Assembly: GCA_964443625.1 (NCBI GenBank)
Contig: CAYUDM010000001.1
Span: 80,705 to 144,704 of the forward strand
From: an uncultured Smithella sp.
GTDB taxonomy: Bacteria; Desulfobacterota; Syntrophia; Syntrophales; Smithellaceae
Length of the DNA stretch: 64,000 nt
Reading direction: 5' to 3'
The notes under the pieces were generated by a model. The model was not told where the DNA came from and did not search any database. It saw only the letters and a program-made list of their open reading frames with translations. This document shows positions 1 through 30,707 of the stretch, in pieces. The translations under genes were made by a program, and so were the position numbers. Positions within the stretch are counted from its first letter, which is position 1, and each line of letters opens with the position of its first letter.

Positions 1-582
1 CATGCCTTTTCGTCTGGCTCTGACGAGAATTTCCACTTCGAATTGAAATCGACGCGCACGGACGGGAAGACTCAGCGCCTCCGGCAGCGGGTAGAGCCGC
101 ATGCCGCTTTGCGAATCCGAAAGCCGGGGCCCGCCCGAAATCCAAACCCAAAAATTGGAAAATTTTCGCCCGAAGCGGCTGGTCCAGGGAATATGCCCGC
201 CGGACTTTGCCGTCATCCCCTCGCGAGCGCCCACGACGACCGGGCGGTTTCCGCCGCGCGCCGCGTCGATCAAACGGCGAATATCTTGGGGATAGTGCTG
301 GCCATCGGCATCGAGCGTCACGGCATAGTCAGCCACATTGGACGCGGCCATAAATCCGGTCATAATCGCCGCGCCCTTCCCTTCGTTTTTCGGATGACGT
401 AAAACCGTTATGCCTTCAACAGCCGCCAGGCGCTGCGGCGTTTCATCCGTCGAGCCGTCGTCCACCACAAAAACGTCGTATCCAAGCCCTCTTGCCTCTC
501 GTGCGACCCGGGCCACCGTGGTCGCGTGGTTGTAAACGGGGATCACCACAGCAATCCGGTTTTTCTGTTCTTGATCCAGCAT
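1..582 (-). CDS. Glycosyltransferase family 2 (C-terminus runs off the window's left edge)
   Basis: My own minus-strand translation from the ATG at 582 gives MLDQEQKNRIAVVIPVYNHATTV...VFVVDDGSTDET...TLDADGQH. This is the typical GT2 N-terminal pattern with a DxD-like motif. The frame stays open to position 1. It lies 34 nt downstream of the Dak2-DegV gene on the same strand. It is absent from the ORF track because it is truncated. Confidence 0.8.
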   Translation of the reverse strand, partial: MLDQEQKNRIAVVIPVYNHATTVARVAREARGLGYDVFVVDDGSTDETPQRLAAVEGITVLRHPKNEGKGAAIMTGFMAASNVADYAVTLDADGQHYPQDIRRLIDAARGGNRPVVVGAREGMTAKSGGHIPWTSRFGRKFSNFWVWISGGPRLSDSQSGMRLYPLPEALSLPVRARRFQFEVEILVRARRKGM

Positions 583-616
583 GTGCGTTCCTTTATCTCA
601 CCACCGAACAGCCCGT

Positions 617-2329
617 CTAATCCATCTCCAAAAACGCGATTCCCCACGTTCCGGGTCCCATGTGAGCCCCTGACGTCAAAGACAAAGGCTGTAGAATAAT
701 TTCCGCCTGCGGGTAGCGCTCCGCCACGCTTTTGCTGACTTGCCGCACCTGCTCTTCGTTGTCGGAATACTCCATCATAATGAGCCCGCGGGAGTCCGTC
801 GCGAACCCGGCGGCCAGTTTCTCCATTGCCATCTTAATCTGGTCCCGGCGGTTGCGCACAACCCCCACTTTTTTTGCGCCATCCGGTTGCGGAGAAATGA
901 CCGGTTTCATTTTCAGCATATCGCCGAAAAAAGCGCTGGTTTTGGAAAGCCGGCCACCGGCCGCAAGATATTCAAGCCTCTCCAGAAACACATACTCCTG
1001 GGCCGTCTCGACGGCTTTGCGGGCAAACGCAATCGTTTTTTCAATATCCCGGGTCTTTGCCCAAAACCGCATCACGGCCAACACCATGATACCCAATCGC
1101 CCTGAGGCCGCTCCCGTATCAATCACTGTAAGGCGATCATCCGGATCGTGTTCCTTTTTCCAGTCGCAGGCCACCTGATAGTTGCCGGTGAATACCGAGC
1201 CGACACACAAATACAGCACTCGTTCAAACCGGGCCAACGCGGCGGCGTAATACTCGTGTCGCTCAAAAACGGAGGACTGGGACGTGGAGACCTTCACGCC
1301 CCGTCGCATCGCATGATAGAGCTCTTCAGGATGGAAGCAGGTTTCCGGCAGCGACTTTTCGCCGACATTCAAATAGCTGTTGAGCAGCGTAAAACCAGAT
1401 CTTTTCGCGTCATCCCGGGTCAGCGATCCGGCCGCATCGCTCATGATGTGCAGGCCGGCGGTTTCCGCGCCGGCGGCGAATTGTTCAATCTGCGCCGAGA
1501 GATTATCGTCCTCCCAATTGACCACAGTGCCCAGCGCTGCCAGTTGGGATTTGATTTTCTCTTTATCGTCCGTGTGGAGATGGATCTTATAGAGATTCCC
1601 GTCACCGATCACAACGGCGCTTTCCTGCCCCGACACGATGCCGGCCAGATCTTTTGAGGCATCGGCATCGGTCTGAATCACGAAATCGACGCAATAACCC
1701 GATTCGGTCTGCCGGTGAAAATTCGGAGCAATCTGAAGGCGGCCTTTAAAAATCTCCGTGACAGGCCGACAGGCGTCGTAAAGACCGGCCAGCGTCCGGA
1801 AAAAGCCTTCAAAAAAAATATACATCCCCAAAGCGCCGGCATCCACAACGCCCGCCTCCTTAAGTTTCGGCAAAAGCTCATGCGTATCGGTCACCGCCTT
1901 TTCAAGTTTTGACACAATCTTTAAAACGGCATTTGGGTCCGATGAAAAATTCTCCCGACACAGAATGTCTTCCAGCGCGTCGAAAACCGTCAGCATCGTG
2001 CCGGGCTTTGGATCCGCAATCGCTTTCCAGGCCCGGGCGTTTCCTTCCTGAGCCGCCGTGGCCAGATCGTAGAGTGAATCGGCCGCGTAAAAGGCGGAAA
2101 AAAACTGCGAGGCGATATTGCCGGAATTCCCGCGGGCGGCCAAAAGCAGTTTCCGGGTAACCGTCTCTTTGGCCTGACCGGCGTGCCGCAGGGGCGCAAG
2201 ACTGATGGCGAGATTGCGTCCCGTATCCCCGTCGGCAACGGGAAACACATTGATCGCGTCGAGCAAATCCGACCAGGCCGACACCCGCTCCGCGCCCGTC
2301 ACATAAGCAGCCGCCAGTAATTCATCCAT
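617..2329 (-). CDS. Dak2(DhaL)-domain / DegV-domain fusion protein (fatty-acid-kinase-like)
   Basis: 570 aa. The N-terminus has FPVADGDTGRNL, the DGDTG motif of Dak2/DhaL phosphotransfer domains. The C-terminal half (HIMSDAAGSL...VLYLCVGSVFTGNYQ...SGAHMGPGTWG) looks like a DegV lipid-binding fold. Its start shares one nucleotide (TAATG) with the upstream thioesterase stop. Confidence 0.75.
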   Translation of the reverse strand: MDELLAAAYVTGAERVSAWSDLLDAINVFPVADGDTGRNLAISLAPLRHAGQAKETVTRKLLLAARGNSGNIASQFFSAFYAADSLYDLATAAQEGNARAWKAIADPKPGTMLTVFDALEDILCRENFSSDPNAVLKIVSKLEKAVTDTHELLPKLKEAGVVDAGALGMYIFFEGFFRTLAGLYDACRPVTEIFKGRLQIAPNFHRQTESGYCVDFVIQTDADASKDLAGIVSGQESAVVIGDGNLYKIHLHTDDKEKIKSQLAALGTVVNWEDDNLSAQIEQFAAGAETAGLHIMSDAAGSLTRDDAKRSGFTLLNSYLNVGEKSLPETCFHPEELYHAMRRGVKVSTSQSSVFERHEYYAAALARFERVLYLCVGSVFTGNYQVACDWKKEHDPDDRLTVIDTGAASGRLGIMVLAVMRFWAKTRDIEKTIAFARKAVETAQEYVFLERLEYLAAGGRLSKTSAFFGDMLKMKPVISPQPDGAKKVGVVRNRRDQIKMAMEKLAAGFATDSRGLIMMEYSDNEEQVRQVSKSVAERYPQAEIILQPLSLTSGAHMGPGTWGIAFLEMD

Positions 2330-2745
2330 TAGACGTACCCCAGCAAATTTCGAATATCGTCGGGAATGGAAAAAAGCGTCTCCATCTCAGGCATTTGCAC
2401 CGCCACCTGCTCGGTGCGACCTCTGGCGCAAACGGCGCCGTCCGTCCGTTTGCGGATTTCAAAATCCACAACCAGTTTGATTCTGGCATCGGCAAGCGTC
2501 GCCCTGACAACGATCTCATCTCGATGTCGCAGCGGTATGATGTGCTTGGTCGATGTGCGGATAATGGGAAAGATGATTTTCTCCCGATCGTAATAACCGT
2601 ACAGATCGACGCCGTAATGGTCGAACAGAGCCGCGCGCGCGACCTCAAAGTAGTTGAGGTAATTGCCGTGCCAGACGATCTGCATCGGGTCCAGATCGTA
2701 AAACGGCACACTGATTTGGACGTCGAAGGTCTTTTTGTCGCTCAT
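2329..2745 (-). CDS. Hotdog-fold acyl-CoA/acyl-ACP thioesterase (YbgC/4HBT-like)
   Basis: FDVQISVPFYDLDPMQIVWHGNYLNYFEVAR is typical of the 4HBT thioesterase family. I prefer the start at M15 (ATG 2745), which forms an ATGA overlap with the ammonia-lyase stop. The track start at 2787 would overlap that gene by 46 nt. Confidence 0.8.
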   Translation of the reverse strand: MSDKKTFDVQISVPFYDLDPMQIVWHGNYLNYFEVARAALFDHYGVDLYGYYDREKIIFPIIRTSTKHIIPLRHRDEIVVRATLADARIKLVVDFEIRKRTDGAVCARGRTEQVAVQMPEMETLFSIPDDIRNLLGYV

Positions 2746-4295
2746 GGCCTCCCCCGGAAAAAATCGGTGTAACGAATGGCAATGCACATCTTTTCAATAT
2801 CCTCGTCCAGCGGCCGGTCTTGAATGACCGGTTCGCTCACCCGACGGATTTTCGAAAGCGTTTCAGCCAGCGCGGGCCGGACGCCGATATTGCCCCGAAT
2901 GTCGCAGGCCTGCGCCGCGGCGAGCAGATGGATGGCGACGACGCGTTCGGCCAGCGTGCACACCCGATCCGCGTCACGAGCCGCAATGGTGCCCATGCTG
3001 ACTTTGTCTTGATTGTGAGATTCGGTGGAACGCGAAAAAGACGCGGCGGGCATGGTGGCCTTTGCCGCCTCTGCGGCAAGCGCCGAGGCGGCAATCGACA
3101 TCGCCTTGAAACCGTGATGCAGACCGTCCTGACGGCCGTTTAGACGCACGAGATCACCTGGAAGCCCCCGGTTGAGATTCGGATTGACCAAAAGCATAAT
3201 CTGGCGGTCGCACATATCGGCCAGGGACGCCACGGCGGCCTTGAGTCCGTCCATGGCAAAGGCGATATGGCCGCCATAGAAATTGCCCCCCATCAAGACC
3301 TGTCCGGTTTCCGGATCAAAGATCGGATTATCGTTTGAGGAATTGGCCTCGATCTCGATCCAGTCGACCATCCAGGGCAGCGCATCACCCAACACGCCCA
3401 GCACCTGGGGCGCGCAGCGCAAGGAGTAAGGATCTTGAAGGGCCTCAAGCGATCCGTCTTCGAGCTTCCGGGCGGAAACCGTGGCACGCAAAAGACGGGT
3501 CAGCCGGCGGGCCACCTCGGTCTGACCGGCAAACGGCTTGGCCTCGGAAATCACCGGATGGTAGTGATGGGCATTGCCTTTCATCGCATGCACGGATAGC
3601 GCCGTGGCATACATCGCGGCGGAAAGCAGACGTCGCGCCCGGTGGGCCGCAACGATGGCGATGCCGGTCATGGTGGTCGTCCCATTCACCATCGACAGCG
3701 GTTCTTTGGGCAAATACTGGTATGGTTTGATTCCCGCCTTTTTCATGGCGCGGGCGGCGGGCATCATCTCGTCTTGGTAAAACACGTCGCGTTCGCCCAT
3801 CAGCGCCGCGCCGATATAGGACATCGGCGTCAAATCGCCTGAGGCGCCCACGGACCCTTCCGCGGGAACCAGGGGGGTAATGCCGGTATTTAAGAACGCT
3901 GCCATCTGTTCGATCAATTGAATGGACACACCGGAATAGCCGCGGGCCAGACACAGCATGCGGGTCAGCATTGCGGCGCGCGTCTCTTCAATGCCAATGG
4001 GATCGCCGGTCCCGCAGCCGTGAAACCGGAAAATGTTCACGCCGCTTTTCATGGCAAGGCCGGAGTCGATCCGGTTGCCGCAGGATTTGCCATAGCCGGT
4101 ATTCACGCCGTAAACCGCAACGCCGTTTTTCATCGCCCGGGCCAGCGCGTTCTGCGTCTTCACCATGCGGGCGACGAAAGCTTTCGATTTTCCCACGATC
4201 ACCGGTTTGCCGTCCACAGCAACGGCCACCATATCGTCAAAGCCGACAGGGCGGCCGTCGATGACCACCGCTGCCCTGCCTCCTGTTTTCTTCAT
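2742..4295 (-). CDS. MIO-dependent aromatic amino acid ammonia-lyase/aminomutase (HAL/PAL/TAL family)
   Basis: 517 aa. It contains GSVGASGDLTPMSYIG, the Ala-Ser-Gly triad that forms the MIO prosthetic group, and is lyase-class-I-like along its length. Substrate (His/Tyr/Phe) cannot be assigned by eye. Confidence 0.9.
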   Translation of the reverse strand: MKKTGGRAAVVIDGRPVGFDDMVAVAVDGKPVIVGKSKAFVARMVKTQNALARAMKNGVAVYGVNTGYGKSCGNRIDSGLAMKSGVNIFRFHGCGTGDPIGIEETRAAMLTRMLCLARGYSGVSIQLIEQMAAFLNTGITPLVPAEGSVGASGDLTPMSYIGAALMGERDVFYQDEMMPAARAMKKAGIKPYQYLPKEPLSMVNGTTTMTGIAIVAAHRARRLLSAAMYATALSVHAMKGNAHHYHPVISEAKPFAGQTEVARRLTRLLRATVSARKLEDGSLEALQDPYSLRCAPQVLGVLGDALPWMVDWIEIEANSSNDNPIFDPETGQVLMGGNFYGGHIAFAMDGLKAAVASLADMCDRQIMLLVNPNLNRGLPGDLVRLNGRQDGLHHGFKAMSIAASALAAEAAKATMPAASFSRSTESHNQDKVSMGTIAARDADRVCTLAERVVAIHLLAAAQACDIRGNIGVRPALAETLSKIRRVSEPVIQDRPLDEDIEKMCIAIRYTDFFRGRP

Positions 4296-4329
4296 TTCAG
4301 GTTTTTCTCCTTTCCCGAATCTCTATCAT

Positions 4330-5559
4330 TTATAAACGAACGCGCGGCTTGTAGGTGCCGTCTGCCTTTTCCTTGTCCATGACGTTTTTGAGCAACTTAA
4401 ACATTTTATAATTCTGCGGTTCTTCTTCATAGAATTTATCCCAGCAGTAGTAGTACATTTCTTGGAGTTTCTCCGGCGTCATGAGTTTGGGTTGAATGAC
4501 CACCTTGCCGCAGGTATAGTCGTTCCAGTTATAGGAAAGAATGCGCCCCTCCTTGTGCAGATCATCAAAAGTCTGCGTATGCGGAAACGGTGTGAGCACC
4601 GTAAATTCCGCCATGTCGAGTTCGATGTCCAACAGGAAGTCCACGAGTCTTTTGATGTAATCCTCCGTGTGATAGTCGAGCCCCAGAAGAATGCTCCCTT
4701 CGACGGCGATGCCGTAGTCGTGGTAACGCTCAATACGTTTCCGGATATAATCGGACGAATCGAAAATCGTCTGATAAACAAACCACGCGCCGGCCTGCGC
4801 GGCCAGATCGAGCACCTCATCATCATCTTCGATGGGATGGCAACACCATTTCTTTTTGAGCGGAATCATTTCCTTGAAAAGCCCGATCTCCCATTCCTTT
4901 TTCTGCGCCAGCGAATTATCGACGATGAACAGACGGTTGTTGTCGATGCCGGCCAACTCTTCGACGACTCTGTCGTAGGGACGGGGACGAAACTGCCGGC
5001 CGCCTAAAAAGCGGACGGCGCACGGATAGCAGTTAAACCGGCAACCGCGGGAGGCGTGCACCAGATCCACCATTTGCACCCCCCGGTAGTTGTACAGATC
5101 ACGATTCAGGATGCTGCGGCGGGCCGGCCCCACGGATTCAATCGGCGGAAAATCATGCATGTAATTGTAAACCTTTTTAAGTTTGCCCGCCTTAAAATCG
5201 GCAAACACCTCCGCAAGTCTTCCTTCGGCCTCGCCCAGAAAAACGGCATCGGCGTGCTGCTCGGATTCCTCGGCATGCAACATCGTTGCAATGCCTCCGA
5301 CAATAACCTTTATTCCTCTGGCCCGGAAGGCGTCCGCGATTTCCCAACCGCGCTTCACCTGAGCGGTCAGCATCATGGACACACCGATAAAGTCCGCGTC
5401 TGTGTTCATGTCCAGCGGTTCGACGTTTTCATCGATGAACCGGACCTCCACATCCGGCGGCAGCGCAGCAGCCATGACGACCGGTCCGTGCGGCGGCAAT
5501 GCAAACCGCGTCTGACGGTCAAGCTTGTCCCATTGCGGATAGATTAACAAAAATTTCAT
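4330..5559 (-). CDS. B12-binding-domain radical SAM enzyme
   Basis: 409 aa. The N-terminal region is cobalamin-binding-like (FIGVSMMLTAQ...KVIVGG). It is followed by ASRGCRFNCYPCAV, a CX3CX2C radical-SAM cluster motif. Confidence 0.85.
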   Translation of the reverse strand: MKFLLIYPQWDKLDRQTRFALPPHGPVVMAAALPPDVEVRFIDENVEPLDMNTDADFIGVSMMLTAQVKRGWEIADAFRARGIKVIVGGIATMLHAEESEQHADAVFLGEAEGRLAEVFADFKAGKLKKVYNYMHDFPPIESVGPARRSILNRDLYNYRGVQMVDLVHASRGCRFNCYPCAVRFLGGRQFRPRPYDRVVEELAGIDNNRLFIVDNSLAQKKEWEIGLFKEMIPLKKKWCCHPIEDDDEVLDLAAQAGAWFVYQTIFDSSDYIRKRIERYHDYGIAVEGSILLGLDYHTEDYIKRLVDFLLDIELDMAEFTVLTPFPHTQTFDDLHKEGRILSYNWNDYTCGKVVIQPKLMTPEKLQEMYYYCWDKFYEEEPQNYKMFKLLKNVMDKEKADGTYKPRVRL

Positions 5560-5569
5560 AAGGCCCCTT

Positions 5570-7093
5570 TTACTCCTCTTCTGTACGTTTTTTCAAAATA
5601 CGTTTGAGCACTTTTCCTGAGGCGTTGCGCGGAAACTCGTCCACGATGAAGATGCGCCGGGGAATTTTGTAATGTGCGATCTTACCTGCAAGAACTTTGA
5701 GCATCGCCTCCTCGGAGATCGTCCGGCCGTCTTTGGCGATCACAAACGCGCCCACCACCTCTCCGCGTCGGACATCGGGAAGTCCAATCACGGCCGCCTC
5801 CTGTACGTCCGGCAGCGACTGAATCGCGCGTTCCACCTCGGCGGGATAAATATTTTCTCCGGACGAAATGATCATTTCGACCTTGCGGCCGACAAGATAA
5901 ATAAAACCGTCCTCATCGCGACGTCCCATGTCACCGGTGGCAAACCAGCCGTCACGAAACGCGGCTTGGGTTTCTTGATCCCTGCGCCAATACCCGGCAA
6001 ACACATTGGGGCCTTGCACCCATATTTCTCCCGGCTCGCCTGCGGGTAAATCCCGGCCGGCATCGTCCACGATACGCAGATTGACATGAAAGACTTCCTT
6101 GCCGACGGAACCGGCCTTCGAGATGGAATCTTCCAGATCCAGCGAGGTGAGCCTCCCGGTTTCGGTCAGCGCGTAGCCCTGCACGAATCCTGCGCCTTTT
6201 TCATCCTGATACTTTCTAATCACGGCCAGAGGAATGGGCGCGCCGCCGGAAATAAAAAAATGCACATGCGACAGATCCGCGTCCTTCCATTCGGGCGTGT
6301 CCGCCATCATTTGATACATAACCGGAACAGCAAACATATAATTGATCTTTTCCCGGCAAATCGTTTTGAGCGTTTCGGCGGCATTGTAAAAACTGCTCAC
6401 CACGAGCGATCCGCCTGCGTAAATGATCGGCGTGACGGACGCGGCCAGCGCCCCGATATGAAAAAGGGGCGCGACGACCAGCGACTTGAAAGACCGGTCG
6501 ACACCGTAGCCTAAAAGTGAATGAATCGCGCCGAAAAGAATATTCTGATGCGTCAGCACCGCACCTTTGGGATCGCCGGTTGTGCCGGAGGTGTACATAA
6601 TGAACAACGGATCGTCCAGTTCAACACCTAGAATGTCGAGCGGCTCGTCGAAGGAGCAGGCCTCGACCACTTCGGAAAAAAGCGGGTCGTCTGCCGGCCC
6701 TTCCCCCCAGGCGCGCAGAAATTGCATCTCGCGGGCCAGAACCGCTTTAATCTGGCGCACCTTGTCGATGAATTCAGGCGAATAGATGAGGACATCCGGC
6801 TCGCTGTCGCGCAGAATGTAGAGAAGCTCCGGCGACGCCAGTCGAAAATTAAGCGGAACCATAATAGCGCCGGTTTTGGCGCATGCAAAAAATATTTCCA
6901 GAAACGCGGCGGAATTGGACATCAGAAGCGCGACCCGCCTGCCTTTGGCCAAGCCCAGATGACCCAAGGCATGCGCTGTCTGATTGACGCGCCGGTCAAA
7001 TGTCTTGTTGCTGACGGATTTTTCCTTTTCCGCGAGAAAAATTCGTTCGGGCGCAATTCGCGCCCGCTTGCTGATCCATTCACCGATATTCAA
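5570..7093 (-). CDS. AMP-dependent acyl/aryl-CoA (or -ACP) ligase, 4-coumarate-CoA-ligase-like
   Basis: 507 aa with the adenylate-forming core motifs YTSGTTGDPKG, GYALTET and TGDMGRRDEDGFIYLVGRKVEMIISSGENIYP. Confidence 0.9.
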   Translation of the reverse strand: MNIGEWISKRARIAPERIFLAEKEKSVSNKTFDRRVNQTAHALGHLGLAKGRRVALLMSNSAAFLEIFFACAKTGAIMVPLNFRLASPELLYILRDSEPDVLIYSPEFIDKVRQIKAVLAREMQFLRAWGEGPADDPLFSEVVEACSFDEPLDILGVELDDPLFIMYTSGTTGDPKGAVLTHQNILFGAIHSLLGYGVDRSFKSLVVAPLFHIGALAASVTPIIYAGGSLVVSSFYNAAETLKTICREKINYMFAVPVMYQMMADTPEWKDADLSHVHFFISGGAPIPLAVIRKYQDEKGAGFVQGYALTETGRLTSLDLEDSISKAGSVGKEVFHVNLRIVDDAGRDLPAGEPGEIWVQGPNVFAGYWRRDQETQAAFRDGWFATGDMGRRDEDGFIYLVGRKVEMIISSGENIYPAEVERAIQSLPDVQEAAVIGLPDVRRGEVVGAFVIAKDGRTISEEAMLKVLAGKIAHYKIPRRIFIVDEFPRNASGKVLKRILKKRTEEE

Positions 7094-7105
7094 AACCGTT
7101 CCTCT

Positions 7106-8356
7106 TTAACTTTCAGATGTCCTAAACACCAGATACGCAAATGTGCCGCCAAAGGAAATTCCGGCCAAAAGCGCGCAATCAACGGCAGGCGCTCTTTGGT
7201 TCGACAGAACAAAATTCAGCGACGCGATGGGATTTTCAAGTCCGACGGTCGGCGGAAGTATTTTTTCATCCAGGGATAAAGCCAAAGCGCACGCTCGCAG
7301 CCCGCCCCCGGAAAAACTTTCACCAATCGCGCCTTTGATCGATGTCACCGCGGGCGACTGACGCGCCCGACGGAAAAATTCCGTGTAGGCGTCGGCTTCG
7401 GTCCGATCCAAAACATCACTGCCGTTGGCGGCGGCCATGACGGCGTCGATTTGATCGGCCTCGATGCCGGCATCGCCCAGCGCGCGTTTCAGTGTTCGCG
7501 TGATGCCGTCTGTTTTTACAGGCCACTGCGTGGGAGCGGCAGGCCCTGATCCGAGAGCCGTGCCGAGAATTTCGCAGTAGACTTTCGCGCCTCTGTCACG
7601 GGCGGATGCAAGACTCTCCAGACACATCATGCCGCACCCCTCTCCGGCCACATAGCCGTTGCGGGCGTCATCGAACGGACGAGCGCCTTCGCTTCGTCCG
7701 TCCTGCGGCGACAATCCGCGAAACCGGGTGAGCACCTCATAGTAGAATTTGGATAAAATGTCCACCCCTCCGGCCAGAAGGACATCCGCCGCTCCGCGCC
7801 GGATTTCGGATACGGCATAGGCAATCGCCGTTTCCGCCGACACGGCAAAATGCGTGACCGTGGTGTTCACACCGCGGAAGCCCAGTTCGATGGACGTGTG
7901 TCCGGCCGGCGCGTTCATGACGGTGTTGGGCACCAGAATCGGATTCACTGAAGACGGTCCCTGGCCTAAAAGCGCATCGGCAACCTGGGCGGTCACATCG
8001 GTGGCCGCAAAGGCCGTTCCTAAAATGATGCCGATGCGGTCGCGGTTTTCTTCCGACACAACCACGCCGGCATCGGTCAGCGCCATCCGTGATGATGCCG
8101 CCGCCAGAAGCGATGTCCGGTCCATCCTTCGCAGATTTTTAAGTGAGATATGATCCCGTGGCGAGAAATTCGTAACTTCCGCCCCCAGATGCGACGGAAA
8201 TCCGCTTGTATCGAACGCGCTCACGGCGCGGATGCCGCTTGCGCCCGCGAAAAGCTTTTCTGAAAACTCCTTCCTTCCCGTTCCAAGAGGGCTCACCATC
8301 CCTACTCCGGTAACAACGACGCGTTTATCATCCGGAAGATTGCGGCGGCTATGCAT
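7106..8356 (-). CDS. KS-like chain-length-factor-type protein (beta-ketoacyl synthase fold lacking the catalytic Cys/His/His)
   Basis: KS fold (VVVTGVGMVSPLG...). At the active-site position it reads THFAVSAETA where the partner has TACSAGAT. AANGSD replaces NAHGT, and KGAIGESFSGGG replaces KSMHAHTLGAAG. The start at ATG 8356 overlaps the upstream KS stop by 8 nt. The track's longer start at 8533 lies inside the KS gene. Confidence 0.85.
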   Translation of the reverse strand: MHSRRNLPDDKRVVVTGVGMVSPLGTGRKEFSEKLFAGASGIRAVSAFDTSGFPSHLGAEVTNFSPRDHISLKNLRRMDRTSLLAAASSRMALTDAGVVVSEENRDRIGIILGTAFAATDVTAQVADALLGQGPSSVNPILVPNTVMNAPAGHTSIELGFRGVNTTVTHFAVSAETAIAYAVSEIRRGAADVLLAGGVDILSKFYYEVLTRFRGLSPQDGRSEGARPFDDARNGYVAGEGCGMMCLESLASARDRGAKVYCEILGTALGSGPAAPTQWPVKTDGITRTLKRALGDAGIEADQIDAVMAAANGSDVLDRTEADAYTEFFRRARQSPAVTSIKGAIGESFSGGGLRACALALSLDEKILPPTVGLENPIASLNFVLSNQRAPAVDCALLAGISFGGTFAYLVFRTSES

Positions 8357-9614
8357 GGAGCGCCCCCTCCCCGTCGTAACGGCCGAAAACCACCGTCGTG
8401 TTGTTTCCGCCAAACGCGAAAGAATTTGACAACGCCGCACGCAGAGATTTGTCCCGGGCGCCGTCGGTAACATAGTCCAAATCGCATTCGGGGTCCGGCT
8501 CGGTGGAGGAAATCGTCGGCGGCACAAAGCCACAAGACAAGGCGATCAAACAGACCACCCCTTCCAGCGCGCCTGCGGCCCCCAGGGTATGGGCATGCAT
8601 GGATTTGGTGGAACTGACCGGAATCGAATAGGCGCGCGCGCCGAAAACTTCCTTGATGGCCTTAGTCTCCATCACATCATTGACCGGCGTGGCCGTGCCG
8701 TGCGCATTGATATAGTCGATGTCTTCCGGCCTAAGGCCGCTTGAGGCCAGGGCCGCCCGCATCGCGCGCACCGCGCCTGAGGCCTTTTCATCCGGCGCGG
8801 TCATATGGAAAGAATCGCAGGTCACACCGTAGCCTAAAATTTCGCCATAGATCTTCGCGCCACGCCGACGGGCCGCATCCAGCGTTTCCATCACGACCAT
8901 CGCCGAGGCTTCTCCCAGGGACAGCCCGGCCCGGTTTTTGTCGAAGGGACGGCAGACGCCTTCATCGACGGATTTGAGCGCGTTGAAGGCCGCATAGGTG
9001 ATCCGGCACATGGGTTCGACACCACCTGCAATCATTCGTTCGGCCTGGCCGCCGACGATCATGTCACGGGCAAATCCCAAGGCGGTCGCGCCCGCTGAAC
9101 AGGCGGTCATAAAAGTTGTCTTCGGCCCGTACAGACCAAATGATGAGGCGATCCGGTCGGCCGACGAGGCGCAATAGATGGCCGAAAGCTTCGAAAAGTG
9201 CGCCCTTGCGGATCCTTTCGCCAGCAGATCGGCGTAGAAGTCTTCCGCTTCCAGAAGCCCCCCGGAGCCGCCGCCGACGACCACACCCGTATCGCCGCAA
9301 AGAGATTCCGGAAAGGGATAGAGGCCGGCGTCGGAAAGCGCCTCAACTGTGGCAGCCATTGCCATTGCATCCGCCCGCGACAGTCTTTTGTGTGAAAATT
9401 CACGAGGAATATGCTCTCGGGGGTTCAAATTCTTAATCTGTCCACCCAGGTGTGTGCGAAAGGCAGCCGTGTCGAAAAGGTCAATCGGCTCGATACCGCA
9501 CACGCCCCGCTTCAAATTTTGTGCAAATTGTCCAGCCGAGCGGGCAATCGCGTTGAGCGTCCCCAGACCCGTGATAACTATGCGTTTCTTTTCTTCCATT
9601 TCCCTTTTAGCCAC
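8349..9614 (-). CDS. Beta-ketoacyl-ACP synthase II-type KS (FabF-like), first gene of the operon
   Basis: 421 aa. It has the intact catalytic triad context: FMTACSAGATALG (Cys), HMTAPD and NAHGTATP (His), and KSMHAHTLGAAG. Confidence 0.9.
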   Translation of the reverse strand: MAKREMEEKKRIVITGLGTLNAIARSAGQFAQNLKRGVCGIEPIDLFDTAAFRTHLGGQIKNLNPREHIPREFSHKRLSRADAMAMAATVEALSDAGLYPFPESLCGDTGVVVGGGSGGLLEAEDFYADLLAKGSARAHFSKLSAIYCASSADRIASSFGLYGPKTTFMTACSAGATALGFARDMIVGGQAERMIAGGVEPMCRITYAAFNALKSVDEGVCRPFDKNRAGLSLGEASAMVVMETLDAARRRGAKIYGEILGYGVTCDSFHMTAPDEKASGAVRAMRAALASSGLRPEDIDYINAHGTATPVNDVMETKAIKEVFGARAYSIPVSSTKSMHAHTLGAAGALEGVVCLIALSCGFVPPTISSTEPDPECDLDYVTDGARDKSLRAALSNSFAFGGNNTTVVFGRYDGEGALHA

Positions 9615-9748
9615 TGTCGCTTAAGCTTCGCTCAAATTTTGCCGAAACTTAAAATTATGAGGGGAAAAAGTCAAATGAATATTCCACGTTCAGCAAGCAG
9701 CGCCCATGGTTAACAACAACAGCGTTCCGAAACAAAACGAATAACCGT

Positions 9749-9777
9749 TTGACAGCCTCAAGGTGTCTTTCTATACT
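9749..9777 (+). promoter_or_regulatory. Sigma-70-type promoter for the hybrid kinase gene
   Basis: TTGACA (9749-9754), a 17-nt spacer, then TATACT (9772-9777). It overlaps the track's GTG start at 9763, which argues that the real start codon is downstream at ATG 9832. Confidence 0.55.
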
Positions 9778-9831
9778 GGAGCTCAAAGCTCGGAAAATGA
9801 CTTTGGAAAGGACAGTCAGGTAAAATACGAT

Positions 9832-12800
9832 ATGCCGTCTTATAAAAAACAGATGGTCTTCCTCATTTTGAGCTTTTTGGTCTGCCTGATCTTCATTGTC
9901 TCGTTGTTGCGGGAAATGCAGTCGCAGGCCGTCGATGTGCTAAATTCGCGCCAGAGGGTCTATGCCAAGCTGACGGCAAAAAATATATCCGATTTCTTCA
10001 CCCACCAGATGGCTGTCCTGAACCATCTGGCCCAAACCGACGAGATCATCCGCCTGGACGCCAAAGGCAAAGCGATTCTTCAGTCTTTCCAGGCAACCGG
10101 AAATAAATACATCACCGGCGTCTCCCGTGTGGACGCCCGTGGTAAACTTCTTTTTACCTGGCCGGATGTCCAGGGCGTTTCAGGCCGGGACATTTCAAAT
10201 CAGCCGCATGTCCAGCGGATTTTGCAAACAAAACAAGTGACCATCAGCGACCCCTTCACCGCCGTGCAAGGATACGAGGGCATCGCCCTGCACGCGCCTG
10301 TCTGGCGCGGCCAGCGATTCGACGGAACGGTCGCTTTTTTGATTTCGTTTGCCGATCTGGCCCGGGAGCATCTGGGCAGCCTGTTTATTCCAAACCAACG
10401 CTATACGCTTCTGATCACCGCCGATGGAAAAATCCTTCAATGCAACAACCCGGTTCACAAAGGAACGTCTGCCACGGATCTGTACCGGAGCAATCTTGAA
10501 GCGCTGGCAATGATTGATGCGATGACGGCCGGAAAAGAAGGAAGTGCGTCTTTCGTGGAACGCCAGGCCGGCGATGACTTCAACGGCCGGCGCGTTTACG
10601 CCGTTTATATACCGATTCAAGTGGGAGACAGGCACTGGGCGCTGGCGGTCGTCTCTTCTGACGATATGCTGATGCCCTCGAGCATGGGTCTGAAAAACCG
10701 TATTCTGATTCTGTCCGCCATTCTCCTTTTGATCTTTGCCGCCATCGCTTACATGGCGGCGCGCATCCGGACCGCAGCTCAGGAAGCGCAGAAGCGCTGG
10801 CAAATCGAAGAAAGTCTGCTGGTCTCAGCCCGGGAAATTCACGACCTTTACCACAACGCCCCCTGCGGCTACCATTCGCTGGACTCGCAGGGGCGGATCG
10901 TTCGCGTCAATGACACGGAACTGACCTGGCTCGGGTACACCCGGAAAGAACTCGAAGGCAAATCCTACGTCGATCTTCTATCGCCGGAAAGCCAAAAGCG
11001 GTTTACCGAAGCCTTTGATCGGGTCAAGCTTTGCAATCTGGCGCGTGACATTGAATACGACATGATCCGCAAGGACGAATCAACCTTCCCGGTTTTAGTG
11101 ACGGCGTCGGCTGTGCTGGACCCGGACGGCCGGTTTCTCATGACGCGGTCCATGGTGATGGACATTACGGAACGCCGACGACAGGAAGAACAATTGCGGG
11201 AAAGCGAAACGCTCTACCGCACCGCCATGGAGACAACCAGTGACGGCATTACCATCACCCAAAACCGCAAGTATGTCTATGCCAACAAGAAGCTCATGGA
11301 AACGATCGGCCGGCCGGATGAAGAGCTGACCGGAAAAACCGCCGGCGTTTACATTCACGCCGATGACCGGAAATTTCTGGAAGAAAATTTCGCGGCCGTT
11401 TCGCGCGGCCTTCCCATGCCGAACCCGACCTACGACATCCGTGTGGTCAAACCGGACGGTTCAGTCGTTTATGTAAGCGTCATCAACGTGCCGATCACCT
11501 ACCACGGAAAGCCGGCAACGCTGGCTTTCATCAAAGATGTCACCTTACAGAAGCAATACGAAGCGGCCCTTCAGGAAAGCGAAAAGCTCTACCGCACTGC
11601 GCTGGAAGCCACCAGCGACGGCGTCACCATCGTCCAGAACGGCATCTATGCGTACGTCAATCAAAAGTTTCTCGATACGATGGGTGTCGAGCGCGAGGTC
11701 ATTATCGATCAACCGCTGGGCATTCTGGCTGGACCTGAGGCACAGGATGGATTGAGGGCCTTTTTAAAAAGACACCCTCAGGCGGACTCCGCTGCCGATA
11801 TTAATCTCACCCGGGTCCAAAAAACGGATGGCTCATTTATTTATTTTCAGTCTTCCTCGGTGGATATCATCTATCGGGGGAAACCGGCTATCTTGACCTT
11901 CATCAAGGACATCACCGAAAGCAAAAAAGCGGAGCAGGCGCTGCGCGAAAGCGAAACGCTCTACCGCACCGCGCTGGAAACCACCAGCGACGGCGTCTCT
12001 ATTATCCAGGATGGCAAATACGTCTATCACAACCAACGCCTGCTCAATACGCTGGGCCGCCCCGGGGAAAGCCTGATCGGCCGGCCGGTGGGCCAGTTGG
12101 TCCACGGGGAGGACTGGGCGAAGGTTTTGCAGTCATACGCCAACCGCAAACCGGGAGATCCCCTGCCCGCCAATATCGAACAGCGGGTGACGCGTCCGGA
12201 CGGATCAATCATTTACATTTCCAGCAATTCCGCCAAAGTGATTTATCGGGGCCGGCCCGCCATCTTGAGTTTTCTGGTGGATGTCACCAAACGCAAGGAG
12301 GCGGAAAACGCTCTGCGCGAAAGCGAAACGCTCTACCGCACCGCGCTGGAAACCACCAGCGACGGCATCTTGATCAGCGATGTTGCGGAGGCAAAGTATC
12401 TGTACATCAATCAGAAACTACTCGACACGCTGGGCCGGCCCCATGAGAACCTCATCGGGGCCCCTATCGATCTATACATACACCCCGACGATGTCGGACT
12501 GGGGAAAAAGTACTTTCTGGAAAGAAAAAGAGAAGGCAAGAAAGCTTCGTATTATGAATCACGCCTCATTAAACCCGACGGCGACATTTCACTGATCAGC
12601 ATCACGTCAACCGACATCATCTTTCAGGGCCGCAAAGCCGTCATCAGTTTTGTTCAGGACATCACCGAAAAGAAAAGGCAGGAACAGGCACTACGGGAAA
12701 GTGAAGAACTTTACCGAACCGCCCTGGAGAAATCCAACGACGGCATATCCATCATCCAGGACGGCAAGTACGTCTATGCCAATCCGAAATTGCTCAAAAC

Positions 12801-14589
12801 GATCGGCCGGGAAGAGGAGGGCATTGTCGGTCTGCCCCTGGGCTTTTATACGCATCCGGATGATCGGGAAAAAGTCCGAGCGTATTATGAAGCACGCCAG
12901 AAAGGCGAACCCGTGCCGCAAAGTTACGACATGCGCGTCGTTAAACCGGACGGCAGCGTCATTATCATCAACATTACCGCCATCAAAATCTCCTATCAGG
13001 GCCGTCCCGCCACCATGTCGTTCATTCTGGACATCACTGAACGCAAAAAAGCGGAAGAGGCGCTTCGTCGTAGCGAGGAACGCTATCGGACGATCATCGA
13101 GAGCATTGACGATGATTACTTCGAAACAGATCTCAAAGGCAGGATCACCTTTTTCAACAAACCGACCGGCTGGTCGGGACACAAGCGCACCGAGCTGGTG
13201 GGTCGGCAGCATACCGAATACACCTCTCCCCAAATGGCCAAGAAAGTCGAAACCATTTTCAACAAGATCTATCGCGACGGCAAACCGGCCCGAATCACCG
13301 ATTATGAGGTTATTCGCCCCGACGGCCACCTGGTCTATCTCGAAATGTCCGTCTCTCTGATGCGTGATGCCGATGGCAAGCCGATCGGTTTTCGAGGGAT
13401 CTCCCGCGATGTGACCGAACAAAAGAAAATGGAGGAGGAACGGAGCAAGCTCACTGAGCAGCTCCATCAGGCGCAAAAAATGGAAGCGATCGGCACGCTC
13501 GCCGGCGGCATCGCGCACGACTTTAACAATTTACTGATGGGCATCCAAGGCTACACATCGCTTATGTTGCTGGATATGACTGAAGCTCATCCCTTTACCG
13601 ACCAGCTCAAAGCCGTTCAGACCCTCGTTCAGAGCGGCGCGACGCTGACTAAACAGCTTTTGGGATTCGCCCGCGCCGGGCGCTATGAAGTGGCGCCGAC
13701 CGATCTCAACGCGCTGATCGCCAAAGCGATCGCCCTTTTTGCCCGCACCCGCAAGGAAATCCGGATTTTTGAAAAGTACGATCCCCACCTGCGGCCGGCG
13801 GATGTCGACCGCGGACAGATCGATCAGGTTCTGCTCAACATTTTCGTCAATGCCTGGCAGGCCATGCCCGCCGGTGGTTCCTTATACGTGGAAACGCAAA
13901 ACAAAACACTGGATGACACATCGGCAAATCATCTCAACCTTCCGGCCGGCACGTATGTGCAGATTTCCATTACGGACAACGGCATCGGAATGGACGATAA
14001 AACGCTCCAGAGAATTTTCGATCCCTTTTTTACAACCAAGGAAATGGGACGCGGCACGGGTCTGGGTCTGGCCTCCGCTTACGGCATTATCAAAGGACAT
14101 GGCGGAACCATCAGCGTTTCGAGCGCCACCGGAGAGGGAAGCACGTTCGACATCTACCTTCCCGCCTCATCGTCCACGCCGGAATCCGAACAGACAGACT
14201 CCTCTGAAACGATCGGGGGGCACGAAACCGTTCTTCTGGTTGACGACGAAGAAATTATCACGGACGTTTCCGGCCGGCTGCTTGAAGAGCTGGGATACCG
14301 CGTTTTAGTCGCCCACAGCGGCGATGAAGCGTTGGTCGTTTACAACAACCGGTGCTCGGAAATCGATCTGGTGATCGTCGATATGATCATGCCCGGCATG
14401 AGCGGATCTGAAACCTTCGATCGTCTCAAGGCGATCAATCCGGATGTGCGAGTGATTCTGTCGAGCGGTTACAGCGTGGATGGCAAGGCTCAGGCAATTT
14501 TAGATCGCGGTGTGAGGGTTTTCCTGCAAAAGCCCTATCGTCTCGATGACCTGGCGCAGAAAATCCGTGAAGCGTTGGCGGATACATAA
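9832..14589 (+). CDS. Hybrid sensor histidine kinase: TM, Cache-like periplasmic domain, TM, about 7 PAS domains, HisKA, HATPase, receiver
   Basis: The N-terminus has two hydrophobic segments flanking a Cache-like region. Tandem PAS modules repeat around (E/R)[13 protein letters not shown]. The H-box is [17 protein letters not shown], the ATPase boxes are NAWQAM and GTGLGLA, and the C-terminal receiver reads VLLVDDEE...[14 protein letters not shown]. The track ORF begins at GTG 9763; I prefer ATG 9832 ([13 protein letters not shown]...) because of the promoter position. Confidence 0.9.
11200..13440 (+). repeat. Tandem array of six roughly 372-378-nt PAS-module repeats inside the kinase gene
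   Basis: The repeat anchor GAAAG(C/T)GA(A/G)... (ESE.LYRTA) recurs at 11200, 11575, 11947, 12319 and 12697, with a more diverged sixth copy (RSEERYRT) near 13068. An exact 54-nt duplicate occurs at 11941-11994 and 12313-12366. Confidence 0.9.
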
Positions 14590-15951: not shown

Positions 15952-17985
15952 TTATTTCAGCCCGTATAATCGCATTCTCCGATACAGCGTCGCGCGCGAG
16001 ATATTGAGTTTCGCGGCAATACGGTTCTTGCGCATTTTCCGCCCAAGCATTTCGGCGATCATGTGTTTCTGGGCATCCTCGTCTTCCGGATCGTCTGCGC
16101 TTTCTGCGGTGCGGATGTCGGCCGGCCGAGGAGATCGGATGTGCTCCGGCACCAGATCCACCGTTAATTCGGATGAGGAGAGGAAATTGATCATCCTTTC
16201 GATGGCGTTTTGCAACTCCCGAACGTTGCCCGGCCAGCGATAACTCATGAAGGCATCGATCACTTTTTTGTCCACCCGGACAATCCGCTTTTTCATGGTA
16301 CTGGCATTGCGCTTGATGAAATGATCCGCAAGAAGCGGAATGTCGTCCATCCGGTCGGAAAGCGGAATCATTTCGATGGCAAACACATTGGCACGGTAAT
16401 AGAGATCTTCGCGGAAATTTCCTTTGCGGACCTCCTCGCGCAAATCCTTGTTGGTCGCGGCGATGATGCGGACGTCTACCGGCCGCACACGCGTGCCCCC
16501 GATGCGTAAGACGGACTTGTCTTCGATGACGCGCAACAGCGCCGTTTGTAATTCAAGAGGTGTCTCGGCGATTTCGTCCAGAAAAAGCGTGCCGCCGTCA
16601 GCCAGTTCAAATTTCCCCTGATTCCCGCCGCGGCGGGACCCGGTAAAGGCGCCCTCTTCATGTCCGAACAATTCACTGGCAATCAACTCGCGAGGAATGG
16701 CGCCGCAGTTGATGGCGACATAAGGACCGTTTCTGCGATCGCTGGCATTATGGATGGCCTGGGCGAAGATATCCTTGCCTGTGCCGCTTTTGCCCAAAAG
16801 CAGAACATTGGAATTACTCTTTGCAACCATCTTCGCCTGATCCACCGTCATCAAAAACCGCGGATTGCGTCCGTGAATGTCTTCAAAACGAAAATTGGCG
16901 GAGGCACCCATCATCTTTGTGACCATCGACTTGGCCCGCTGAATTTCATTGAGGATGATGATCTTGCCCATAACCTGCTCGTCGGGAGACAAGATGGGAT
17001 TGCATGTCAGCGTATAGTCACCGGACGATTTTCTCGTAAAAATCCGGACTTCCGTATCCGTGATGGTTTCATTACTTTCAATCAGCATAAAAAACGGAGC
17101 GTTCTCCGACGGAAGAATGTCCCGCAATCGACGCCCTTCCACTTTGGTATTGACCAGATCAAATTTTCGGCGGGCGATTTCATTGACCAGGGTCGCGCGA
17201 CCATCGGAATCCAATGCGACGAGCGCTTCCTGGATCGAGGAAATCACCGTCTGCTGATAGCTCGCGGCGACCCGGCTTTCCGCCAGAGCCCGGCGGATTT
17301 TAAGCTCGTTTTCTATTGCATTGGCGGCCGACACAACAATGCCCAGTGTATGCGGGTTGGCACGGTAATAGCGACCGAAAATGGTCACGATGCCGATGAA
17401 TTCGCCATCCGCGCCGAAGATCGGCGCTCCGCATCCCGTCGCCCCGTGATACAGGCGGATATATTGCTGGGGGCCGAACACTTGCAAGGGCTTTTTGTAG
17501 AAAGCCACCGAGCCGGCCACGTTGTTTCCGGAATAGGGTTCCGCCCAGCAGGCGCCGACAAATCCTTTGGCTGTGCGGATGAGCTTTTCCTCTTCAGGAT
17601 CGCCCAAAACGACCAGGACATACACATCGCGGTCCAGAAGGCTAAACAGAAAACCGGAGCCTTCCAAAAAGCGGTAGAGATTTTTCATAAACGGCTGGCC
17701 CACATCAATCAATTCTTTGTTTCGGGCCAACAAATCGTCGAGCTCTTTTCCTTCCAATACTTTATTAGCCGGCTTCCCCAGAGGGTCTACACCGAGTCCG
17801 GCACAGCGGACCCAGGACTCGTAGACCTCTTCCGGAATGATGGACATGTCCAGTTTGGGATCACCCGCTGTGAACTTCTTCCATTCCTGATAAGTCTGCT
17901 GATAGAAGCGTTCATAGTAATCCGCGCCCATCAAATTAATGTCACGCAAAAGCCTTCTTTTTTCAGAATTGGATTCCTGTGTCAT
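15952..17985 (-). CDS. Sigma-54-dependent transcriptional activator (sensor GAF/PAS region, AAA+ domain, Fis-type HTH)
   Basis: 677 aa. The Walker A is [26 protein letters not shown] contains the GAFTGA-type sigma-54 contact loop. The C-terminal HTH is [14 protein letters not shown]. Confidence 0.9.
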
Positions 17986-26031: not shown

Positions 26032-26451
26032 ATATTACTCATCAGAGAATTTTTCATTTTGCCGCGCCGCTTTCGAACCAGATCGGCAAGCGTGACACAG
26101 CTCAAAGTCTCGGCGATTTTTTGCCCCAACGCACCCCATAACGTGTCCGAGTGGACAATTTCATAACTCAAAAACCCTGATAAACCAGTATTACTATCTT
26201 TTTGGTAGTGTTTAATGCAACCTAAATGAGATGTCAAGAAAATATTCCACAGCTTGAAAATATTGCCAAGATTTGAAATCTGAAGCGTTGGCCGCGTTTT
26301 TCCTTTTCTTTTTCCTCATTATCCTTGACCATTTACCCTTTTACGTGTACGGGTACATCAAATGATCCGAAAAAACATGGGCTGTTGAACTTCAAGCGAC
26401 CCGTCGCTTTTCGGGGCATATAATCCACCCCAGAAACAAAGGAGACATCCC

Positions 26452-30701: not shown

Positions 30702-30707
30702 AAATTT

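Follow-up and report, generated by a model that had tools for sequence, protein, structure and literature searches.

Positions 1 to 9614 of a 64,000-nucleotide stretch of contig CAYUDM010000001.1 from an uncultured Smithella sp. (the whole stretch is referred to below as the window) carry an operon of eight genes. In this operon, a β-ketoacyl synthase (KS) and a partner resembling a chain-length factor (CLF) are combined with an acyl-CoA ligase, a B12-binding-domain radical S-adenosylmethionine enzyme (rSAM), an ammonia-lyase of the 4-methylideneimidazole-5-one (MIO) type, a hotdog thioesterase (TE), a single-chain fatty-acid-kinase-like protein (Fak fusion) and a family 2 glycosyltransferase (GT2). 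The operon is real and kept by selection, its parts being unequally constant. Considering its gene content and homologies, there is about an even chance that it represents the "short form" of an anaerobe-specific relative of the aryl polyene (APE) envelope-lipid clusters, in which an aryl-acrylate-primed lipid would be elongated by the KS/CLF pair, tailored by the rSAM, released by the TE, converted to an acyl-phosphate and attached to a glycolipid. Across lineages, the persistent core is the lyase together with the Fak fusion, usually with a B12-rSAM, a TE, and a GT2 or acyltransferase, and it sits inside APE-like or "ladderane-type" gene sets; within the family, the persistent core consists of the rSAM, lyase, TE, Fak fusion and GT2. 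The features concerned are the following.

8349..9614, minus strand: KS, active β-ketoacyl synthase, FabF-like, with ketoacyl-synt N- and C-terminal domains (Pfam); start at GTG 9614 or ATG 9599
7106..8356, minus strand: CLF-like dead KS paralogue, with a KS fold (Pfam) and the triad replaced
5570..7093, minus strand: putative AMP-forming acyl-CoA ligase, FadD/MenE-like, accessory cassette (Pfam AMP-binding and AMP-binding_C)
4330..5559, minus strand: predicted B12-binding-domain radical SAM enzyme of an unmodelled family (PF02310, CRFNCYPC motif)
2742..4295, minus strand: predicted MIO-type aromatic-amino-acid ammonia-lyase or aminomutase of a distinct subfamily (Lyase_aromatic, ASG triad)
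2329..2745, minus strand: hotdog TE, ApeK-like (Pfam 4HBT_2 and 4HBT)
617..2329, minus strand: Fak fusion, single-chain and fatty-acid-kinase-like (Dak2, FakA-like_M and DegV)
1..582, minus strand: GT2, last gene of the operon, with the first 194 of its 240 aa inside the window (Glycos_transf_2, 89 bits)
9615..9762, no strand: divergent intergenic region between the KS gene and a PAS histidine-kinase gene (gene map); operon promoter presumed from position

The tight coupling described in the initial annotation, which had been made from the sequence without database searches, holds, and the domains are confirmed by Pfam and NCBIfam. According to the open reading frame (ORF) listing and translation, all eight genes are on the minus strand; the CLF ATG precedes the KS stop, giving an overlap of 8 nt, the lyase and TE genes have an ATGA in common, the TE and Fak genes a TAATG, and the remaining gaps are of 12, 10, 34 and 34 nt. 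An exact-protein look-up retrieved two metagenome contigs with an identical Fak protein, L001, which repeats the operon, and L002, which is identical to the window and runs past its left edge. As had been recognized, the GT2 gene is cut at this edge, and its full length of 240 aa is given by L002. In this contig, a convergent PNPOx-like gene and then a gene of the metallo-β-lactamase (MBL) fold lie to the left of GT2; the operon therefore ends at GT2, and the genes for acyl carrier protein (ACP), ketoreductase (KR) and dehydratase (DH) are not to the left, where the initial annotation had placed them as a possibility.

Regarding conservation, a one-genome-per-species scan yielded 528 relatives, the best 80 of which were examined; all are Smithellaceae-type metagenome-assembled genomes (MAGs) at 77-93% identity. 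The rSAM homologues that are 82-100% identical are labelled Smithellaceae, Smithella or Syntrophaceae. When the eight window proteins were compared by tblastn with the best 80 of the 528, a conserved order KS-CLF-(ligase)-rSAM-lyase-TE-Fak-GT2 was obtained, all eight proteins being 56-93% identical to those of the window in Smithellaceae loci of different species. The operon is present in at least 80 species-level Smithellaceae genomes, and parts of it are found in other Desulfobacterota and in Spirochaetota; the objection anticipated in the initial annotation, namely that the order might not be kept in related genomes, is answered by its conservation across the Smithellaceae genomes examined. 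In Smithellaceae loci with enough flanking DNA, the lyase gene is followed by Fak (57/57), TE (55/57) and GT2 (47/47), and the rSAM gene is directly upstream of the lyase gene in 73/73 genome loci and in 38 of the 53 metagenome loci in which a lyase was found. The B12-rSAM and the Dak2-DegV protein, which had been regarded as not standard for such clusters, are no additions but form together with the lyase the most constant core of the family. The ligase gene is found between CLF and rSAM in only 27/57 Smithellaceae loci, about 20 loci have an extra gene of about 1.1 kb after the ligase (an acyl-CoA dehydrogenase in L008), and in several loci, CLF and rSAM are separated by unrelated inserted genes, or KS/CLF are missing from the vicinity. 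Three loci (L013, L021 and L077) have lost the lyase and kept rSAM-TE-Fak-GT2. In L013, from a Smithella MAG, a remnant of the CLF C-terminus stands in frame before the rSAM ORF (9713-11230), and KS, CLF and lyase are missing; this locus looks like a case of natural decay in which only the core rSAM-TE-Fak-GT2 is left.

Outside the family, lyase relatives 55-63% identical to that of the window occur in Desulfomonilia, Desulfobacterales, Spirochaetota and Chrysiogenales. A metagenome scan with the lyase alignment added 80 loci, which are called distant here if their lyase has less than 68% identity with that of the window. Fak is found within 2 kb after the lyase in 21 of 27 distant loci and TE in 16 of 27, and a B12-type radical SAM gene, of either the window type or the TIGR04072 type, adjoins the lyase gene in most of them.

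The relation to APE clusters is most visible in loci that carry more genes than the window. Of 41 informative Smithellaceae loci, about 13 carry extra genes that continue the operon upstream of KS (long forms, e.g., L030, L038, and L040); at this place, where the long forms keep ACP, KR and DH, the window has instead the divergent PAS kinase gene. In L038, the order is a small DH, a KR of the short-chain dehydrogenase/reductase type, LolA, an unknown protein of 218 aa, a phytoene-desaturase-like flavoenzyme, a 91-aa ACP, a third KS (KS3) and a PF01553 acyltransferase, followed by the window-type genes. Protein-by-protein BLAST against the ape cluster of E. coli CFT073, with gene roles taken from the literature (PMC8253772), relates the KR to ApeQ (44%), KS3 to ApeR (38%), the acyltransferase to ApeD (33%), the ACP to ApeF (29%) and the DH to ApeP (26%). 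In a neighbor-joining (NJ) tree of 12 KS sequences, KS3 of the long forms groups with ApeR at 100% bootstrap support.

More distant relatives show other combinations of the same parts. The deltaproteobacterial locus L003, where the rSAM is 52% identical to that of the window, has the order rSAM-ACP-ACP-ApeO/ApeC fusion-amine oxidase-lyase-TE-Fak, with lyase, TE and Fak respectively 54, 46 and 48% identical to the window proteins; its neighborhood also contains ApeI/ApeP-like DHs, another two radical SAM genes and one more KS pair, and an ApeH-like ligase lies about 10 kb off in the same locus. In L004 (rSAM 71%), the rSAM comes after KR-LolA-unknown and adjoins ACPs, ApeI/ApeP-like DHs and a KS pair, together with two radical SAM genes and a different B12-rSAM that passes TIGR04072 (380.2 for a cutoff of 360). 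L086 has lyase-TE-Fak near LolA and KR, and five loci (L105, L119, L134, L153, and L155) have ApeP-like-KR-LolA-unknown-rSAM-lyase-(TE)-Fak, with the rSAM of the window type. In the spirochaete locus L087, the order is lyase-TrmO-like-Fak-GT2-LpxL-like acyltransferase, the last two matching the N- and C-terminal halves of ApeJ, respectively. L089 and L090 have ligase-lyase-TE-Fak-PlsC-like acyltransferase-ApeR-like KS, where the ligase is ApeH-like.

Within the window itself, genes of the APE attachment type are found, namely an ApeK-type TE (33% identity with E. coli ApeK over 133 aa, E = 4e-22) and an ApeJ-type glycosyltransferase, GT2 sharing 36% identity over 239 aa with ApeJ's N-terminal half (E = 5e-36). 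An ApeO/ApeC pair, an ApeH ligase, cluster-encoded ACP, KR and DH, and the genes for export and localization (ApeG, ApeL, ApeM and ApeN), all of them characteristic of canonical APE clusters, are missing from it. ApeH-like ligases occur in 12 of 171 sequences (170 loci and the window), L003 and L089 among them, and in neither the window nor Smithellaceae; a LolA-family gene is absent from the window and is limited, within Smithellaceae, to the long-form relatives. The ligase of the operon, which had been called 4CL-like, turns out to be FadD-like, since its sole above-cutoff NCBIfam match is a long-chain-fatty-acid-CoA ligase subfamily (479.7 for a cutoff of 476); its similarity to ApeH is only 27% over 117 aa.

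The lyase matches Lyase_aromatic (PF00221) over its full length with 509.8 bits and, as a member of the MIO superfamily, contains the motif GSVGASGDL, of which ASG is invariant across 120 homologues. It stays under all the NCBIfam equivalog cutoffs, namely those for hutH (TIGR01225; 422.6 for 539.15), BagA (395 for 1000), Tyr-aminomutase (317 for 501), phenylalanine ammonia-lyase (PAL; 313 for 519) and the flexirubin enzyme FlxA (NF053541; 321.6 for 700). In PAL, the residues of the selectivity switch are Phe-Leu. Alignments place Phe-His at this switch in the window lyase, compared with Ser-His in histidase (7tqr) and His-Leu in the tyrosine ammonia-lyase (TAL) of Rhodobacter (2o78), and Asn-Gln at the positions of Gln-Glu414 in histidase. 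Of the 120 homologues, 77 have FH and 25 have YH at the switch, and 108 contain TESHNQDK. As predicted from these residues, the lyase is a separate MIO subfamily with the signature (F/Y)H + ESHNQDK, in which the residues on the carboxylate side resemble those of TAL and PAL, and its signature appears to be closer to the Phe/Tyr enzymes than to histidase. A plain histidase (HutH) next to hut genes, the case that the initial annotation had itself put forward against its reading, was considered and rejected: the score is below the hutH cutoff, Phe-His stands for Ser-His and Gln for Glu414, and Pfam scans of the other ORFs revealed no hutU/I/G or other hut genes in the window.

The KS retains the Cys/His/His triad, and Ala/Ala/Glu is found at the equivalent positions of the CLF in an alignment to FabF; because of this replacement, the CLF is considered catalytically dead. 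At the gene level, an active KS and an adjoining paralogue without the triad, overlapping by 8 nt, are consistent with a KS-CLF heterodimer. The KS passes the NCBIfam FabF subfamily NF005589 (408.2 for a cutoff of 387), and both proteins miss the FabF equivalog TIGR03150 (cutoff 493.75; KS 412.6, CLF 297.6). The top PDB matches of the KS are FabF structures and the best CLF matches are likewise of the FabF type. KS identity reaches 31% with ApeO, 33% with ApeR and 37-43% with FabF, the highest value being for Synechocystis FabF; identities to E. coli FabF are approximate. No BLAST match was found between CLF and E. coli ApeC. The NJ tree gives good support to the clades of ApeO, ApeR and FabF, and in it ApeO joins the fusion of L003 with 100% support, whereas the placement of the window KS and CLF has a support of 12-42%. 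With regard to the suspicion, raised in the initial annotation, of a housekeeping FabF pair, FabF is indeed the nearest match, yet the equivalog cutoff is not reached and the placement in the tree is weakly supported. Chains B and C of PDB 9s5h and 9s5i, a FabF-like heteromeric pair of 413 and 412 aa, are among the top relatives of KS and CLF. A special link of the window KS to this pair was rejected, as 9s5h chain B is 39% identical to it and no closer than the cyanobacterial FabF (43%). The 9s5h/9s5i pair may be the anammox amxFabF2/amxFabFmut heterodimer of a 2026 preprint.

In the Fak fusion, Dak2, FakA-like_M and DegV are all above the Pfam cutoffs, and PDB matches relate residues 4-182 to FakA_N and residues 287-567 to DegV/FakB. 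Six diverse orthologues all retain DGDTGRN and Cys213/His250/His252, and the latter residues fit the pattern of the catalytic Cys/His/His of FakA_L (PMC9136124). By its domains, FakA_N, FakA_L with Cys/His/His and DegV/FakB, the protein qualifies as a predicted fatty acid kinase, and its DegV domain keeps the usual fatty-acid-binding motifs of the family; the full-length FakA equivalog is missed (111 for a cutoff of 975). In S. aureus, FakA_N and FakA_L (Cys240/His282/His284) are sufficient for catalysis, FakA_C only docks FakB, which carries the acid, and the acyl-phosphate on FakB can be transferred to ACP by PlsX (PMC9136124). Like the FakA/FakB system of Firmicutes, the window protein has a Dak2 FakA_N domain with DGDTG, a FakA_L domain with Cys/His/His and an acid-binding domain of the DegV/FakB type. 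Unlike this system, it is a single polypeptide with DegV in place of the FakB-docking FakA_C; moreover, the Firmicutes proteins serve general fatty acid salvage, whereas the fusion belongs to a specialized lipid operon in an anaerobe of the Gram-negative type. The Fak fusion thus appears to be an acid kinase complete in itself, the acid-binding domain having taken the place of the docking domain.

The rSAM contains CRFNCYPC (CxxxCxxC) and only just reaches the PF02310 cutoff (32.3 for 32.1), with PF04055 below its cutoff (23.7 for 29.5), and may be a class B (cobalamin-dependent) enzyme. All its NCBIfam matches are far under cutoff; an assignment to TIGR04072, the "lipid biosynthesis B12-binding/radical SAM protein", was rejected (47.4 for 360). 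Its orthologue group is narrow, since a representative-level search gave two full-length clusters at 50% identity (71 and 52% identical to the window protein) and then only sequences at 39% or less.

These properties can be compared with those of three known systems. APE clusters, as in E. coli CFT073 (apeA-apeR), have been described as the bacterial biosynthetic gene cluster family with the widest distribution, and the transfer of the acid to its anchor is unsettled (PMC8253772). The operon has in common with them a logic resembling type II fatty acid synthase (FAS) or polyketide synthase (PKS), with a KS and an inactive partner, an ApeK-like hotdog TE and a GT2 that resembles ApeJ's N-terminal half; to this, the long forms add ApeQ-like KR, ApeP-like DH, ApeR-like KS, ApeD-like acyltransferase, LolA-like protein and ACP, and some relatives the ApeO/ApeC fusion and an ApeH-like ligase. 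On the other hand, the KS and CLF of the window are FabF-like instead of ApeO/ApeC, its locus is without ACP, KR and DH, it has no homologue of ApeA, ApeB, ApeG, ApeH, ApeM or ApeN, and its MIO lyase, B12-rSAM and FakA-DegV kinase are not among the functions listed for the E. coli cluster (PMC8253772). The flexirubin clusters likewise use a MIO lyase (FlxA, a tyrosine ammonia-lyase) that feeds an aryl-acrylic starter to an elongation of the APE type, but the window lyase misses the FlxA cutoff and has another active-site signature, (F/Y)H + ESHNQDK, and flexirubin hosts are Bacteroidota, whereas the host of the window is a strict anaerobe of the Desulfobacterota. The aryl polyene/flexirubin-like logic of the initial annotation has comparative support from the TE, the GT2, the Ape-like genes of the long forms and locus L003, and not from the KS/CLF and ligase, which are not of the Ape type. 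As judged from its genes, the operon is a system that works like an APE/flexirubin pathway, yet falls outside the canonical APE family. The third system comprises Cluster I of anammox bacteria and the FAS-II-like clusters of Desulfotalea and Geobacter, which also have a FabF-type KS with a dead FabF paralogue and a B12-radical-SAM (PMC2649909; bioRxiv 10.64898/2026.05.19.726425). As in the long forms, a phytoene-desaturase-like flavoenzyme, ACP and DH are present there, and TIGR04072 members adjoin relatives of the window lyase. Unlike in these clusters, the window rSAM is outside TIGR04072 and the KS has no special affinity to 9s5h. Synteny of the FAS-II-like clusters of Kuenenia and deltaproteobacteria has been described, and ladderanes were not detected in Desulfotalea psychrophila (Rattray 2009, PMC2649909). 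The term "ammonia-lyase" is absent from the papers on the anammox/Desulfotalea clusters, and no Fak fusion was noticed in their descriptions; no description of the operon from Smithella or Syntrophus was found in the literature searched.

Homology and gene context suggest the following course for the pathway; gene content, coupling, conservation and Ape homologies are observed directly, and the catalytic motifs of the KS, lyase (ASG), rSAM (CxxxCxxC) and Fak fusion are intact, with the CLF active site dead. The MIO lyase would deaminate an aromatic amino acid, and the resulting aryl-acrylic acid would serve as the starter, to be loaded as a thioester, by the optional FadD-like ligase where it is present. 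Since the ligase is patchy and extra ligases are found in loci without lyase, it can also be speculated that the ligase, with or without an acyl-CoA dehydrogenase, would produce the same enoyl-CoA from arylpropionate. The FabF-derived KS and its dead partner would then elongate the starter on ACP, with KR and DH acting in trans. The B12-rSAM would tailor the head group or the chain, with C-methylation as the likeliest reaction; methylation is what enzymes of this class most often catalyze, and a methyltransferase of the ApeB type is absent. The ApeK-like TE would free the acid, which the DegV domain would capture and the FakA-type kinase domains would convert to an acyl-phosphate, and the acyl group would finally be attached to a glycolipid anchor that the ApeJ-like GT2 would synthesize or modify, with the participation of an acyltransferase encoded elsewhere. 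This late role of the Fak fusion is favored because TE and Fak are translationally coupled, GT2 comes after Fak, and loci without lyase retain Fak.

Several points weigh against this reading. The aryl starter would depend on the lyase as its single indication, and the His at the second switch position of this lyase is a histidase feature. Regarding elongation, in the phylogeny that the initial annotation had proposed as a check, the KS and CLF fall in neither the ApeO nor the ApeR clade, and FabF is their nearest match; a saturated or otherwise non-polyene chain is as possible as a polyene. The action of KR and DH in trans is an assumption made because their genes are adjacent in long-form relatives and absent from the window locus. 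ACP, KR and DH had been reported as not visible in the window, and queries from relatives for ACP, ApeI/ApeP-like DH, KR, LolA, LPLAT and amine oxidase indeed found no match in the 64 kb by tblastn. Homologues of ApeA, ApeB, ApeG, ApeM and ApeN are found in none of the 171 sequences. With respect to the rSAM, neither NCBIfam nor a PDB sequence search (matches with E > 0.001 only) gave a characterized relative, and its AlphaFold model is confident only for the N-terminal α/β domain (mean pLDDT 58, pTM 0.42). Finally, no paper with both DegV and ammonia-lyase was found in the literature searched.

The main alternative, which is considered unlikely, belongs to the same pathway family and gives the Fak fusion an early role: it would bind the aryl-acrylic product of the lyase and convert it to an acyl-phosphate, from which a PlsX-type transacylase or another acyltransferase would load ACP, so that an ApeH-type ligase would be replaced. 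Such a role would explain the pairing of lyase and Fak across phyla, in the distant as well as in all the Smithellaceae loci counted above, and the ligase is dispensable, with no ApeH-like ligase in Smithellaceae. The spirochaete locus L087 has lyase and Fak with no KS, ACP or ligase within 10 kb, and the transfer of FakB-bound acyl-phosphate to ACP by PlsX provides a precedent (PMC9136124). However, the Fak fusion is kept in L003, L089 and L090 despite their ApeH-like ligases, as well as in the three loci without lyase, and the TE gene lies between those of lyase and Fak, with translational coupling to the latter; the fatty-acid-binding motifs of the DegV domain give nothing in favor of a small aromatic ligand. 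A "ladderane-type" fatty acid pathway like that of Kuenenia/Desulfotalea, in which FabF and dead FabF would make an aliphatic chain that the B12-rSAM would remodel by methylation, cyclization or C-C bond formation, and in which the lyase would not be the source of the starter, appears quite improbable. The FabF-like KS and dead KS, as in anammox Cluster I, the phytoene-desaturase-like flavoenzyme and ACP of the long forms, the TIGR04072-passing protein next to a relative's lyase and the synteny between Kuenenia and deltaproteobacteria (Rattray 2009, PMC2649909) are in line with it. Against this, the window rSAM fails TIGR04072, the lyase, which is the most conserved gene, would be left without a role, and the ApeK-, ApeJ-, ApeQ-, ApeR-, ApeD- and ApeO/C-type genes favor the logic of APE.

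Two further explanations are very much less probable. In one of them, to which little credence is given, the MIO enzyme would be an aminomutase producing a β-aryl-β-amino acid, to be N-acylated by the acyl-phosphate or acyl-ACP of the operon into an andrimid-like lipo-amino acid made without nonribosomal peptide synthetase. MIO aminomutases score near the lyases (Tyr 2,3-aminomutase 317 bits, SgTAM 254 bits), and in general chemistry, acyl-phosphates are good N-acyl donors. Nevertheless, the operon has no condensation, transglutaminase or N-acyltransferase gene and a starter role fits the APE-type relatives better; lyase and mutase are not separable by sequence here. The other, strongly disfavored and hardly credible, is that of chance neighbors, a histidase of histidine catabolism beside genes of fatty acid salvage (FadD, FabF, TE and Fak). 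The top NCBIfam match of the lyase is indeed hutH (422.6 bits), and the ligase and KS pass cutoffs of fatty-acid-CoA ligase and FabF subfamilies; but the lyase remains below the hutH cutoff, without Ser-His and Glu414 and with no hutU/I/G nearby, one of the KS copies is catalytically dead, translational coupling and order are conserved in the Smithellaceae genomes examined, and the lyase-Fak pair recurs in other phyla.

If true, a hand-over of the acid as an acyl-phosphate by the Fak fusion would answer, for this branch, how acids of the aryl polyene type reach their lipid anchor; the anchoring step of APE would be replaced or supplemented here by a fatty-acid-kinase fusion, which makes the acyl-phosphate route testable. 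For radical SAM modification of ketoacyl-type (non-isoprenoid) lipids, a 2026 review lists two proposed cases only, ladderanes and jawsamycin, and the operon would place a B12-radical-SAM in a FAS/PKS-type lipid pathway outside anammox bacteria. It can be proposed, as a tentative and rather doubtful generalization, that the rSAM-lyase-TE-Fak-GT2 module is an unrecognized way to make and anchor specialized envelope lipids in strict anaerobes, with a starter from a new MIO subfamily, a cobalamin rSAM acting on a ketoacyl-type lipid and a single-chain kinase handing the acid to the anchor. The (F/Y)H + ESHNQDK subfamily may have a substrate specificity that is new among MIO enzymes, and the product of the operon could be a lipid or biomarker that is common in such anaerobes and has gone unnoticed.

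In many Smithellaceae-type loci, an LpxL-like (Lip_A_acyltrans) gene is located about 4 kb downstream of GT2 (L101-L103, L106, L117, L130, L131, L137, L140, L144, L146, L159, and L168); it is also found in 19 of the genome loci L006-L085, e.g., L028, L059, L063, and L071. A copy belonging to the window, if any, would fall beyond its left edge.

At the other end of the operon, the region 9615-9762 presumably contains its promoter, as inferred from position; on its minus strand, no sigma-70-like site was detected by a consensus scan, overall counts being the same as in shuffles, and the counts from the promoter and terminator scans were indistinguishable from those of shuffles. Divergently from the operon, 9763-14589 (plus strand) encodes a hybrid histidine kinase of 1608 aa, rich in PAS domains that are followed by HisKA/HATPase and receiver domains; its PAS modules are near-repeated, each being opened by a motif like ALRESE(T/E)LYRTALE(T/A)TSDG. 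A role of this kinase in regulating the operon is conceivable, but most related loci do not have the two side by side.

According to Pfam scans, the rest of the window contains regulators, a second ligase paralogue, housekeeping genes, a low-GC island resembling arsenic resistance islands and a dcw cell-division cluster. The second AMP-ligase paralogue (18230-19891, plus strand) is 32% identical to the ligase of the operon and adjoins the gene of a sigma-54 activator with a PAS domain (15952-17985, minus strand). The island (26000-36000; GC 0.46-0.51 vs about 0.56 elsewhere) encodes an ArsP-type permease, thioredoxin-like proteins, a low-molecular-weight phosphatase/ArsC-like protein, a DsbD-type membrane protein and an SBF/ACR3-type transporter, and looks like an acquired island of resistance to arsenic or redox stress. 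A SIR2_2-domain protein (37015-38196, minus strand), encoded beside a DnaJ-domain protein and with weak PADLOC matches to ThsA (52 bits) and LmuA, may be a defense gene. Immediately upstream of the ftsZ/ftsA/mur (dcw) cluster, 50474-52147 (minus strand) encodes a radical SAM protein with a Radical_SAM_N2 domain, which tblastn weakly relates to the TIGR04072-type rSAM of L004.

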